A DNA stretch of 64,000 nt from a virus. Lineage: Duplodnaviria; Caudoviricetes. Both the position numbers and the translations under genes were made by a program. The stretch is from positions 110,671 to 174,670 of IMG/VR virus record IMGVR_UViG_2974655483_000001; one strand, given 5' to 3'. Shown here piece by piece: positions 45,104-52,045 of the stretch; the stretch's first letter is position 1, and each line of letters starts with the position of its first letter. The notes beneath the pieces were generated by a model, which saw nothing but the letters and a program-made list of their open reading frames with translations, made no database searches and had not been told where the DNA came from.

Positions 45104-46244
45104 ACTACAAGGAATGACCGTATTTAACAAGAATAAAGTAGACACAAAGAAACAACCCATGTTTTTTGGGCAACCTCTTGGAGTGCAGAGGTATGATTCA
45201 TATAAGTATCCTGTGTTTGACAAACTAACTCAGCAACAACTGGGTTATTTTTGGAGACCAGAAGAAGTATCCCTACAGAAAGACCGTGCCGATTACCAAA
45301 CTCTATCGCCAGAGCAGAAGCACATCTTCACTAGTAACCTTAAGTACCAAATCATGTTGGATAGCGTACAAGGGAGGGGTCCTGGGATGGCTTTTAGCCC
45401 TTACTGTTCACTCCCTGAGTTAGAAGCATGTATGAATGTGTGGCAGTTTATGGAGATGATTCATAGTCGCTCTTATACTTACATCATCAAGAATGTATAT
45501 TCAGATCCTACAGAAGTCTTTGATACTATTTTAGATGATGAGCGTATTTTGGATAGGGCATCATCAGTGACTGAATCTTATGATGACTTTATCAATCACG
45601 CTCACGAGTATGATAATGGAACCATGTGGGAACTGGCAAAGGATGGTCACTATGCAGGACAGTTTGATCGTCGTGAACTGAAACGTAAACTCTATCGTGC
45701 AGTTGCTAATGTGAATATCCTTGAGGGTATTCGTTTCTATACATCCTTTGCATGTTCATTTGCTTTCGGTGAGAACAAACTCATGGAAGGTAGTGCAAAG
45801 ATTCTTTCATTGATTGCTCGTGACGAATCTCAGCATTTGAATCTGACTCAAAATATTCTTCGTAAGTGGTCGGAGGGTGATGACCCAGAGATGGAAGTCA
45901 TTGCTAGAGAGGAACAATCATGGGTAATGAGTATGTTCCAGCGTGCTGTAGATGAAGAGAAGATGTGGGCAGAGTATCTATTTAAAAATGGATCTATGAT
46001 TGGATTGAATGAGCGTCTTCTTCATAACTATGTTGAGTGGATTGCTAATCGTCGTATGAAAGCAATCGGCATCAAACCTATGTTTGACATCCCTGCTAAA
46101 AACAATCCGTTACCTTGGACGGAGCACTGGTTAAATAGTAAAGGACAGCAAAATGCACCTCAAGAAACGGAGATTGAAAGTTATGTCATCGGAGGAATCA
46201 AACAAGACGTTGAAGCAAACACCTTCGCAGGATTCTCCCTCTAG
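45084..46244 (+). CDS. nrdB: Ribonucleotide reductase class I beta subunit
   Basis: FWRPEE, EMIHSRSY, LEGIRFY, RDESQH, APQETEI.SY. Confidence 0.97.
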   Translation: MSPAKSELQGMTVFNKNKVDTKKQPMFFGQPLGVQRYDSYKYPVFDKLTQQQLGYFWRPEEVSLQKDRADYQTLSPEQKHIFTSNLKYQIMLDSVQGRGPGMAFSPYCSLPELEACMNVWQFMEMIHSRSYTYIIKNVYSDPTEVFDTILDDERILDRASSVTESYDDFINHAHEYDNGTMWELAKDGHYAGQFDRRELKRKLYRAVANVNILEGIRFYTSFACSFAFGENKLMEGSAKILSLIARDESQHLNLTQNILRKWSEGDDPEMEVIAREEQSWVMSMFQRAVDEEKMWAEYLFKNGSMIGLNERLLHNYVEWIANRRMKAIGIKPMFDIPAKNNPLPWTEHWLNSKGQQNAPQETEIESYVIGGIKQDVEANTFAGFSL

Positions 46245-46572
46245 TGATGAATGCTATAGGGCAATCCTAGATGCAGCAGAACACGGTTGGGATGACCTAT
46301 TAGATAAGGCAGACCAACCAGCAAACCCTTTCGCAGAAGAACTTTGGTTAATGGAAAAGAAAAAAGCACAGCAACAAAAAGAAACTGATGACATCGTTGT
46401 CAATATGGATGGTGGTGTTGGCGGTAGTTGGCAAACTGTAGAAACCCCTGAAGAACGCAACACCCGTCATAGTGTTGATAAGGGTGAAGAGTTTATCAAA
46501 AGTGGTATGACCCTTATCACAGACATTGATAGTGATAAGTATCTTAAATCAGCACGACGCAATTCAAAATAA
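46183..46572 (+). CDS. Hypothetical protein
   Basis: ORF between nrdB and the riboswitch region; start uncertain. Confidence 0.6.
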   Translation: MSSEESNKTLKQTPSQDSPSSDECYRAILDAAEHGWDDLLDKADQPANPFAEELWLMEKKKAQQQKETDDIVVNMDGGVGGSWQTVETPEERNTRHSVDKGEEFIKSGMTLITDIDSDKYLKSARRNSK

Positions 46573-46617
46573 GTATGCTACAATATAAATATAAGTGGCA
46601 GCGCAAGTTGCCATTTA

Positions 46618-46842
46618 CGTTCATCCCTTCGGGGACGCAAGTAAGTCGCGGAACGGAGCCGTTCATCCCATGCTAGAACTATTATTCTATTCGTCACTCA
46701 CATGTGCTCAAGCTGATAGCATTATGCTACGGATGAGAACAAATGAGAATATTCCTCCCGAATATAAGGTGGAATTGATTGAGGTCATGAAGGAATCAAC
46801 GCCTGATTGCTATCCATGGGACGCAAACGACTGAAGGAACGG
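46618..46842 (+). ncRNA. Glutamine riboswitch (glnA / Downstream-peptide type), double-aptamer arrangement
   Basis: CGTTCA-P2-CGCA-AGTA-AGTCG...CGACT-GAAG-GAACGG; second CGTTCA-P2-CGCA core inside; upstream of a YRG small protein; TATAAATA at 46584. Confidence 0.8.
46670..46834 (+). CDS. 54-aa protein nested in the riboswitch
   Basis: GGAG at 46655; MLELLFYSSLTCAQADSIMLRMRTNENIPPEYKVELIEVMKESTPDCYPWDAND. Confidence 0.7.
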   Translation: MLELLFYSSLTCAQADSIMLRMRTNENIPPEYKVELIEVMKESTPDCYPWDAND

Positions 46843-46876
46843 GGGAATAAACCACCCTAACTTCAGGAGTAACAAC

Positions 46877-47044
46877 ATGAACACATTACAAATGGTCAAA
46901 GAGCAGATCCAAAAGGCATCTGCAGTTCACAACGCACAAATTTCTCACACTTCATATCGTGGTGTTGAGTATTCTACTCGTTGTGTAGAGTCTAAAGAGA
47001 CTCATGGCACATTCTGTTATCGTGGTCGTACTTACAGCAAGTAA
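46877..47044 (+). CDS. 55-aa DUF4278-like (YRG motif) protein
   Basis: AGGAG RBS; MNTLQMVKEQ...TSYRGVEY...FCYRGRTYSK. Confidence 0.8.
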   Translation: MNTLQMVKEQIQKASAVHNAQISHTSYRGVEYSTRCVESKETHGTFCYRGRTYSK

Positions 47045-47065
47045 ATATTATTTGCATACGAACAC

Positions 47066-47090
47066 AAAGCACCCTTAGGGGTGCTTTTTT
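47066..47090 (+). terminator. Intrinsic terminator, followed by TGCTATAAT -10 for talC
   Basis: AAAGCACCC-TTAG-GGGTGCTTT + T-run. Confidence 0.85.
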
Positions 47091-47126
47091 GCTATAATAA
47101 ATACTGACAACCTATACGGGAGAGTC

Positions 47127-48586: not shown

Positions 48587-48739
48587 ATGAACACAGAGTT
48601 CTACGAGGCATTGAGTAACGAAGACGCACTGCTCGACTTATTTGTTGATCAGTTACATCGTTTTGCTGAATTGGAATTGGAAGAACCTAAGACTACTACT
48701 GGGTCAGTAGCTCAGATGGATAGAGCAACTGCCTTCTAA
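48587..48739 (+). CDS. 50-aa acidic protein overlapping the tRNA
   Basis: AAGGAG RBS; reads through the 5' half of the tRNA and stops at TAA in the anticodon loop. Confidence 0.6.
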   Translation: MNTEFYEALSNEDALLDLFVDQLHRFAELELEEPKTTTGSVAQMDRATAF

Positions 48740-48774
48740 GCAGTCGGTCACAGGTTCGAGTCCTGTCTGACCCG
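48701..48774 (+). tRNA. tRNA-Arg (anticodon UCU)
   Basis: GGGTCAG/CTGACCC acceptor stem, ACTGC-CTTCTAA-GCAGT anticodon arm, GGTTCGAGTCC T arm; CCA not encoded. Confidence 0.95.
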
Positions 48775-51892: not shown

Positions 51893-51948
51893 GGTCAGCA
51901 AGTTAAGGAACCAACACATTTCTTAACAAGACTTAACACCCCACAAAC

Positions 51949-52045
51949 CAAGACCTATAGGGTGTATAAAAACGTCTTTCATATCCTTGCCTTAGGGTGG
52001 CGAGGAAATAGTAAAACCATCATCTCCCTGATGATCTTACTTTTT
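51949..52045 (+). ncRNA. Structured psbA leader (PhotoRC-II-like motif)
   Basis: AGGGTG repeats, TCCTTGCC/GGCGAGGA stem, AGTAA..ATCATC-TCCCT-GATGAT..TTACT stem in the psbA 5' UTR. Confidence 0.7.

Follow-up and report, generated by a model that had tools for sequence, protein, structure and literature searches.

We describe a regulatory cassette of a T4-like cyanomyovirus (S-RIM12/Syn33 group; locus identity 99.8%) in which a predicted glutamine sensor made of two interlocked aptamer cores encloses a complete protein-coding gene. The cassette occupies positions 46584–47093 of the stretch analyzed here, a 64,000-nucleotide (nt) window corresponding to positions 110,671–174,670 of the IMG/VR record IMGVR_UViG_2974655483_000001, and consists, in order, of a putative promoter, a 5′ hairpin, a riboswitch with an embedded open reading frame (ORF1), a second reading frame (ORF2) and a terminator. 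Its neighbors are nrdB and talC, one on each side, and its central motif occurs in a single copy in the complete 174,670-base-pair (bp) virus record. Judged from its sequence, the segment 46618–46842 is a double glutamine aptamer with an outer core of type 1 (glnA-like) and a circularly permuted inner core. The explanation we favor overall, with a probability of roughly 0.6, is a self-contained cassette in which this nested double sensor, with ORF1 embedded in it, has ORF2 as its output. Riboswitch aptamers are usually viewed as compact, contiguous and untranslated, and the use of riboswitches by phages is said to be rare; here one or two real genes interrupt the predicted sensor, and selection has nonetheless preserved its long-range helices and tertiary pair.

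Architecture and relatives of the double aptamer

The outer core is laid out as helices P1 and P2, a CGCA linking strand, an E-loop and helix P3. P3 has no terminal loop and opens into a second three-way junction, the inner core, which comprises the hairpin P1′, the helix P2′ and a CGCA strand of its own (Table 1). P3 is common to both cores, and each core combines the CGNA strand of one 3′ half of the element with the GAACG strand of the other. The E-loop (AGUA/GAAG) at the base of P3 is present in the outer core only, and the outer AGUAAG…CUGAAG strands are identical to those of the crystallized glnA RNA. An earlier reading of the letters alone (the original prediction) had proposed an outer glnA-type aptamer with a second core inside its P3, and, in the P2′ loop, an ORF whose ribosome-binding site was placed at the inner P1; the ATG of this ORF was assigned to the P2′ 5′ strand and the stop to the E-loop. 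On re-reading the sequence, all motif coordinates that it named proved exact to the base, and the anatomy of the embedded ORF was confirmed.

By blastn, the locus was matched in 405–412 phage records, all of them Synechococcus or Prochlorococcus myoviruses. We retrieved 26 diverse phage loci and extended them with several hundred viral contigs from pattern scans of IMG/VR; our main tables are built on 189 unique complete elements from cyanomyovirus genomes and IMG/VR contigs. Four conserved pieces follow each other in constant order across elements: 5′ half a (CGUUCA and the P2 5′ strand), 3′ half a (P2 3′ strand, CGCA, AGUA, P3 5′ strand and GGAACGG), 5′ half b (CGUUCA and the P2′ 5′ strand) and 3′ half b (P2′ 3′ strand, CGCA, P3 3′ strand, GAAG and GAACGG). 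The contents of the two loops vary. Most elements (129 of the 189) have a hairpin in P2 and ORF1 in the P2′ loop, 30 have hairpins at both places, 21 carry a further gene, ORF0, in the P2 loop together with ORF1 in the P2′ loop, and nine combine ORF0 with a P2′ hairpin. The arrangement in the source phage is not unique: four modular variants exist, in which ORF0 and ORF1 can each be present or absent.

Just 11 pattern matches were found among 185,579 species genomes of cellular organisms, mostly on phage-sized contigs of metagenome-assembled genomes (MAGs) or single-amplified genomes, so the double motif looks phage-specific. It also occurs on contigs filed under Streptomyces viridochromogenes (L149), Nonlabens xiamenensis (L154) and other names (L148, L151, L153 and L155–L156); such contigs under unrelated bacteria or archaea are probably phage DNA in MAG bins or assembly contamination.

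Covariation and the nested topology

Base pairing is maintained across the embedded genes. P2′ pairs 1–4, whose strands are separated by ORF1, form base pairs in 101/101 elements that carry ORF1, and CG, UA, UG and AU types are all represented; S-RIM8 and S-WAM2, for example, have UCCU/AGGA in place of UCCC/GGGA, and when the partners were shuffled the observed level of pairing was reached in 0 of 1,000 cases. Across ORF0, P2 pairs 1–3 are paired in 36/36 elements, and ORF0 stop codons lying in the P2 3′ strand covary with the 5′ strand (UGAGA/UCUCA, UAAGA/UCUUA and UAGGA/UCCU). P3 has compensatory variants (AUUCG/CGAAU in S-TIM4, AGUCA/UGACU twice, and G·U forms), and in two longer, 8-bp types of P3 the end pairs switch among U–A, A–U and G–C. 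The 8-bp helices (AGCCGACU with AGCCGACU, or GGACGACG with CGCCGCCC; L023 and L027–L146) keep A·C/C·A mismatches at positions 3 and 6 despite sequence change, and these may form a specific non-Watson–Crick motif. Alignment of homologous loci had been suggested as a check on the second core; P2′ and P3 both covary there, as do both P1 helices.

The closing pairs of P1 and P1′ determine how the two halves are connected. The P1′ closing pair is G–C, C–G or A–U and changes jointly with the adjacent CGUUN: in the 52 unique elements with CAACG and the 4 with AAACG in place of the GAACG of 3′ half a, the neighboring CGUUC has become CGUUG or CGUUU, with the outer strands unchanged (C and G). The outer P1 closing pair shifts jointly from C–G to U–A in six unique elements, a change in which the far 3′ strand takes part and the near GAACG does not. 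Closing pairs fit the nested arrangement in 189/189 elements; with the two aptamers placed side by side in tandem, the informative ones would be mismatched in 62 of 62 cases, and only the 127 uninformative ones fit. Because these variants fit only nested pairing, the element is nested and not tandem.

In solved structures of glutamine aptamers, the long-range ‘linchpin’ positions, C19:G41 in type 2, contact glutamine or cap its pocket (PMC6698751). In the outer core of the phage element, CGGA in 3′ half a goes with a C after the GAACG of 3′ half b in 65/65 unique elements (35 of them with ORF1 inside), and CGCA goes with a G in 187/189. In the inner core, a C as the first base of the P1′ loop goes with CGGA in 3′ half b (11 loci) and an A with CGUA (8 loci), so that 19 of 27 inner variants are compensated. 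It is this crosswise covariation that assigns the CGNA and GAACG strands of each core to different halves. To judge by these positions, both cores retain the architecture of the ligand-binding pocket; no A37 variants of the inner GAACG were found in IMG/VR.

The elements without embedded genes show the same fold in compact form. Bellamy, ACG-2014f and 28 further viral contigs hold the whole element in 84–102 nt, with P2′ as a small hairpin (UCCC-uucg-GGGA and UCCA-ggaaac-UGGA are among the forms seen). In a 29-sequence alignment of ORF-less elements, 96.5% of cells are paired under the full proposed structure and 11 pairs show double changes, with such changes in three of the four outer P2 pairs; 0 of 500 shuffled alignments matched this, and register shifts lowered pairing to 34–55%. 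RNAalifold folded the same 29 elements into the nested structure, with the outer P1 spanning everything and P1′ as an inner hairpin. ACG-2014f scores 41.1 bits against the Rfam Glutamine model (cut-off 35) over the outer core, the inner core being treated as a 41-nt insert in P3.

At Rfam gathering thresholds, the whole window yielded only a tRNA and PhotoRC-II, with no match at the riboswitch locus. The element falls below threshold because of its 142-nt ORF insert: once the ORF interior is cut out in silico, it matches the profile of the ORF-less form end to end (67.4 bits, E = 3.8e-21), as do 110 of 110 ORF-bearing elements after the same treatment (median 65 bits), and shuffled controls gave no match to this profile. 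Applied to the uncut 225-nt element, the covariance model of the ORF-less form did not reach across it and picked a wrong 3′ half (46616–46734, 30.2 bits), which reflects a length limit of the search and is not evidence on the structure.

Table 1 Features of the cassette (window coordinates)
Feature	Position	Strand	Remarks
T4-type late-promoter-like motif TATAAATA	46584–46591	+	Read from sequence; 26 nt 5′ of the aptamer
5′ hairpin TGGCA…TGCCA	46596–46613	+	Inverted repeat, listed on the minus strand, between the promoter motif and the aptamer
Outer P1 5′ strand CGUUC and junction A	46618–46623	+	Pairs with 46837–46841; closing pair covaries
Outer P2 hairpin UCCC-uucg-GGGA	46624–46635	+	Covaries in relatives
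Outer CGCA linking strand (46636–46639) and E-loop 5′ half AGUA (46640–46643)	46636–46643	+	C46638 is the long-range partner of G46842
P3 5′ strand AGUCG	46644–46648	+	Pairs with CGACU 46828–46832
GGAACGG: inner P1′ 5′ strand (46651–46655) and inner long-range partner G46656	46650–46659	+	Loop GAGC holds the ORF1 Shine–Dalgarno GGAG (46655–46658)
Inner P1′ 3′ strand CGUUC and junction A	46660–46665	+	Covariation; pair probability 0.94–0.97 (unconstrained fold)
P2′ 5′ strand UCCCAUG, with the ORF1 start codon	46666–46672	+	Pairs with 46815–46821; probability 0.83–1.0 (unconstrained fold)
ORF1, 54 amino acids, phrog_504	46670–46834	+	Fills the P2′ loop; ATG 46670, TGA 46832–46834; dN/dS 0.30
P2′ 3′ strand CAUGGGA	46815–46821	+	Pairs with 46666–46672; covariation
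Inner CGCA linking strand	46822–46825	+	C46824 pairs with G46656; covariation
P3 3′ strand CGACU (46828–46832) and E-loop 3′ half GAAG (46833–46836)	46828–46836	+	CUGAAG 46831–46836 doubles as the anti-Shine–Dalgarno strand
Outer P1 3′ strand GAACG and long-range partner G46842	46837–46842	+	Covariation
CUUCAG (46861–46866) overlapping the ORF2 Shine–Dalgarno GGAG (46866–46869)	46861–46869	+	Pairs with CUGAAG 46831–46836
ORF2, 55 amino acids, YRG-motif DUF4278/IF17-like, phrog_545	46877–47044	+	dN/dS 0.25; weak Pfam match
Intrinsic terminator of the cassette	47066–47093	+	Stem-loop 47066–47087 plus T run

Embedded genes and the expression platform

By their substitution patterns, ORF0, ORF1 and ORF2 all evolve as coding genes. 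The ratio of nonsynonymous to synonymous substitution rates (dN/dS) is 0.27 for ORF0, close to the values for the other two (Table 1), and for the inner ORF, whose frame conservation had been named at the outset as a check, it indicates purifying selection. Non-consensus fractions at the three codon positions of ORF1 are 0.39, 0.22 and 0.47, the third position being the most variable and the second the least. The last six codons (W-D-A-N/H-D) encode the P2′ 3′ strand, the CGCA strand and the P3 3′ strand, with the stop UGA lying within CUGAAG; here the non-consensus fraction is about 0.06–0.10 at all three positions, because these codons are also the RNA motif. ORF1 of S-CAM1 (L017, 536–760) and S-CAM3 (L025) ends (…WYWSDHE) 15–18 nt short of the P2′ 3′ strand and leaves the RNA motif untranslated; these phages are natural controls for separating RNA constraint from protein constraint.

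The boundaries of the embedded genes are tied to the conserved RNA strands. The AUG of the embedded ORF stands 4–5 nt after CGUUCA in nearly all elements, and the ORF1 stop falls at the U(G/A)A of CU(G/A)AAG in 90/101 relatives. Among elements with a short P3, the P1′ loop reads AG(N), which creates GGAG, in 69 of 71 with ORF1 versus 0 of 12 without it. ORF0, a gene of 59–75 amino acids in the loop of the first hairpin (P2), is present in 30 of the 189 elements, for example in Syn10, S-CAM1 and S-TIM4, and has its stop either within the 3′ strand of P2 or at the UAA found in AGUAAG. With boundaries placed in this way, a translating ribosome must melt core helices.

The embedded proteins have no assigned function. 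ORF1 matches no Pfam family, PHROG and Atlas give ‘unknown’ only, and its 80 homologues are without exception unnamed proteins of phages or metagenomes; the category is likewise ‘unknown’ for the PHROG families of ORF0 (phrog_6471), ORF1 and ORF2. An AlphaFold model of ORF1 shows a small three-helix protein (predicted local distance difference test score, 76). Embedded ORFs (including those of L007, L019, L026 and L070) fall into few families with a hydrophobic N terminus and two conserved cysteines about 35 residues apart, and members of a family are found in either loop, P2 or P2′. The families are probably distant paralogues (hhalign, 87–95%). One small cluster of embedded ORFs has a clear Sec-type signal peptide.

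The ORF1 frame is open upstream to a GTG at 46595, and many public gene calls are proteins of 79–82 amino acids that span the aptamer. We rejected this longer form because differences in P2 length between relatives are not multiples of three, and it is probably an annotation artifact. Excision of the ORF from the RNA was rejected as well: metatranscriptome contigs show no clean joint, and apparent ‘skips’ come from relatives with a different ORF interior. Contigs from marine RNA libraries bridge the aptamer halves and ORF1 unbroken (X2, 46643–46795; X9, 46654–46869), which is no proof of transcription, of RNA ends or of strand.

Downstream of the aptamer, the YRG-motif DUF4278-like gene and the terminator that had been predicted are both in place (Table 1), and an ORF2 with a YRG motif follows 133 of 139 elements; the protein at this position in P-SSM7 scores 30.3 bits against DUF4278. 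CUGAAG covers the end of the P3 3′ strand and the 3′ half of the E-loop, and its helix with CUUCAG, which overlaps the Shine–Dalgarno (SD) sequence of ORF2, competes with the outer P3, E-loop and P1. Without ligand this anti-SD helix has a probability of 1.0; it is part of a local hairpin (−17.4 kcal/mol) in which G46841 and G46842 are sequestered as well. At its variable base the helix has G–C in 54 elements, G–U in 48, A–U in 44 and A–C in none (n = 146), and the change preserves the ORF1 stop codon as UGA or UAA. Of the other helices, P2, P1′ and P2′ are formed in the ligand-free ensemble (probability 0.83–1.0), and the outer P1 and P3 are not.

Signals upstream of the aptamer differ among phages. 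The motif TATAAATA in the source phage is a putative T4-type late promoter, and 13 of 135 related elements have a late-promoter-like motif 25–28 nt (once 44 nt) 5′ of the aptamer. In L005, L020–L024 and 72 of the 135, there is a sigma-70-like promoter (TTGACx-17-TATAAT) that ends 7–8 nt before CGTTCA, so the RNA start would coincide with the aptamer in those relatives; its −10 box often lies within a hairpin, resembling the promoter-stem-loop cassettes of T4-type phages. Different phages thus seem to deploy the cassette in different phases of infection, as far as promoter sequences can tell. At the place of the 5′ hairpin, relatives have hairpins of differing sequence. Elsewhere in the window, an ORF of 139 amino acids (46153–46572) shares about 90 nt with the end of nrdB, read in another frame; the ORF belongs to no family, with a weak match to DUF4944 (E = 0.055), and relatives carry shorter ORFs there. 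A tRNA gene is located at 48701–48774 (71.5 bits), and a PhotoRC-II RNA (RF01717), a known cyanophage motif associated with photosystem genes, at 51924–52019 (79 bits, well over threshold).

Proposed mechanism, alternatives and known systems

In Synechocystis, glutamine turns on gifB, a DUF4278 gene encoding IF17, through a type 1 riboswitch (PMC6212724). By analogy with that leader, it is quite likely that glutamine binds both cores of the phage element, stabilizes P1, P3 and the E-loop against the anti-SD hairpin and switches ORF2 on, and the IF17-like product of ORF2 may then inhibit host glutamine synthetase. The common P3 could couple the two sites and make the response steeper, for which we see even odds. 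The start region of ORF1 lies in the inner core and its stop in the platform, so folding and ORF1 translation would be mutually exclusive; taken jointly with an opening of the sensor by the ribosome, we rate this slightly below an even chance. The ORF1 start, with its SD in the P1′ loop and its AUG in P2′, would be usable only when the inner core is open, and ORF1 would be translated mainly co-transcriptionally or at low glutamine. A ribosome on ORF1 would unzip P2′, the inner CGCA strand and P3, and terminate on the anti-SD strand, and its passage would reset the sensor and briefly expose the SD of ORF2. The original prediction had suggested such mutual exclusion, a sensor with two outputs and resetting by ribosomes, which the anatomy is compatible with. 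In its full form this amounts to a ribosome-gated, multi-output riboswitch in which glutamine hides the starts of ORF1 and ORF0 and exposes that of ORF2, with ribosomes opening the sensor and forcing it to re-sample the amount of glutamine, a tentative proposal to which we give somewhat less credence than to its opposite. If true, a single RNA of about 230 nt integrates metabolite level and translation activity during infection.

Several observations weigh against parts of the cassette as we read it. The inner core has no E-loop and places its long-range G in a hairpin loop of 3–4 nt, a geometry not present among solved structures, and 8 of the 27 inner long-range variants are uncompensated. 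Under relaxed Rfam settings the element scores below cut-off with both glutamine models, at 25.8 bits versus 35 for Glutamine (RF01739; 46616–46659) and 24.5 bits versus 33 for Glutamine-II (RF01704; with mismatched stem columns), each over the 5′ part only; together, these matches are confined to 46616–46663, forcing the 5′ part into one small aptamer. The ORF2 match to Pfam DUF4278 (PF14105) is likewise sub-threshold (20.9 bits, cut-off 25.3; E = 4.6e-4). In the nearest-neighbor model the fully folded state, whether nested or tandem, lies about 11 kcal/mol above the ligand-free minimum, and the modeled formation of P1′ and P2′ without ligand means that the ORF1 start may be occluded at any glutamine level. 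Finally, the loop GGAG is missing from many of the long-P3 elements that carry ORF1.

This last point also suits a simpler view, in which the double aptamer controls ORF2 only and forms on ribosome-free RNAs, with ORF1 and ORF0 filling tolerant loops of compact genomes without regulation or feedback. P2 loops are non-conserved aptamer periphery, all four loop and ORF combinations exist, and ORF families swap positions in a way that fits recombination at repeated conserved motifs. Passive insertion does not sit well with an AUG fixed at 4–5 nt after CGUUCA, with stops placed in a conserved RNA strand (P2 3′ strand, AGUAAG or CUGAAG) or with a GGAG that tracks the presence of ORF1 in short-P3 loops, and we consider it unlikely, if a serious contender. 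A positive coupling relay is more doubtful still: termination of ORF0 would open the ORF1 start and termination of ORF1 on CUGAAG the SD of ORF2, so that ORF1 and ORF2 rise together and glutamine only modulates how tight the relay is. The anti-SD strand does contain the ORF1 stop, at a distance of 43 nt from the AUG of ORF2 downstream, and ORF0 stops are in or beside the strands preceding the ORF1 start; ORF-less elements, however, share the expression platform, so control of ORF2 needs no upstream ribosome.

Two further readings dispute the aptamer itself. The motifs could be recombination or processing modules between small genes, as in the promoter-stem-loop cassettes of T4-type phages, with only a superficial likeness to an aptamer; they do flank shuffled small-gene modules, with promoter–hairpin elements just upstream. 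Against this, both cores hold all core nucleotides of solved glutamine pockets, the helices and the tertiary pair covary, an ORF-less member exceeds the Rfam curated threshold and the downstream gene resembles the DUF4278 type controlled by glutamine riboswitches, which leaves the idea very improbable. The tandem reading, with two side-by-side aptamers of which the second has an ORF in its P2 loop (P1 at 46618–46622/46651–46655 and 46660–46664/46837–46841), draws on the sub-threshold Rfam matches that treat 46616–46663 as one unit, on the best Rfam alignment of Bellamy, which is to its second unit (34.5 bits), and on nearest-neighbor energies that do not separate the folds (tandem −64.2, nested −65.4 kcal/mol). 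The mismatches that it would impose on every informative P1 closing pair (C·C, G·G or similar), all of which pair when nested, the long-range covariation that links CGNA to the GAACGN of the opposite half, the covariation of P3 and the nested RNAalifold structure leave it almost no room.

The nested double sensor, then, is a layout carried by several hundred cyanomyovirus genomes and viral contigs and overlooked by covariance-model scans, and RNA-family searches should tolerate gene-sized insertions. It offers a natural system in which metabolite sensing, as predicted, and ribosome traffic share helices, gives structural studies a natural double aptamer that is interlocked and circularly permuted, and suggests that phages control the nitrogen assimilation of their hosts by way of an IF17-like peptide. 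A 2017 survey listed just two glutamine aptamers in cyanophages (PMC5473149). The literature we searched mentions Rfam hits to glnA RNAs in T4-like cyanophages, ‘tandem’ glnA RNAs and the two cyanophage examples, and nowhere mentions nesting or genes inside an aptamer; the nesting may have been noticed earlier in ORF-less forms.

Compared with Glutamine-I (RF01739; the gifB leader, PMC6212724, and the crystallized Synechococcus aptamer, PMC5393176), the outer core shares the three-way junction, CGUUCA, P2, CGNA, the AGUAAG/CUGAAG E-loop and GAACG with its long-range partner, and a DUF4278 gene there, a DUF4278-like one here, lies downstream; in both, strands from the 3′ side of the aptamer take part in an anti-SD pairing. 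The outer core is member-like, resembling type 1 in every sequence feature tested save the Rfam score. It differs in that P3 is not a hairpin and leads to a circularly permuted second core, one hairpin of which encloses the ORF1 gene, and in its long-range pair, which is C:G, as in type 2, where Glutamine-I has G:C. Glutamine-II (Downstream-peptide, RF01704; PMC6698751), found in the picocyanobacteria that host these phages ahead of short DUF4278 ORFs, shares the CGUUCA, CGCA and GGAACGG signature along with the C:G pair, but the phage element has no pseudoknot hairpin around GGAACGG, the equivalent of the pseudoknot being an ordinary P1 in the outer core and a closed hairpin in the inner one.

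Tandem riboswitches, such as those for glycine and the ‘tandem glnA RNAs’ (Weinberg et al. 2010, PMC2864571), likewise place two cores for one ligand before a single expression platform, a likeness that suggests a steeper response; in the phage element two complete cores precede one anti-SD helix, but they are nested and interlocked through P3, each built from strands of both halves. Group I introns and similar RNAs with ORFs in peripheral loops provide a precedent for a gene in the loop of a peripheral helix, which here closes more than 140 nt. The phage element, in contrast, has neither splicing nor a homing enzyme, and the ORF boundaries overlap strands of the predicted sensor and platform. 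In leader-peptide attenuators and in the coat/replicase control of MS2, ribosome passage remodels the RNA that governs a downstream gene, as we propose here, with the difference that the remodeled structure is a predicted metabolite aptamer and the ORF encodes a conserved protein rather than a sensor peptide.

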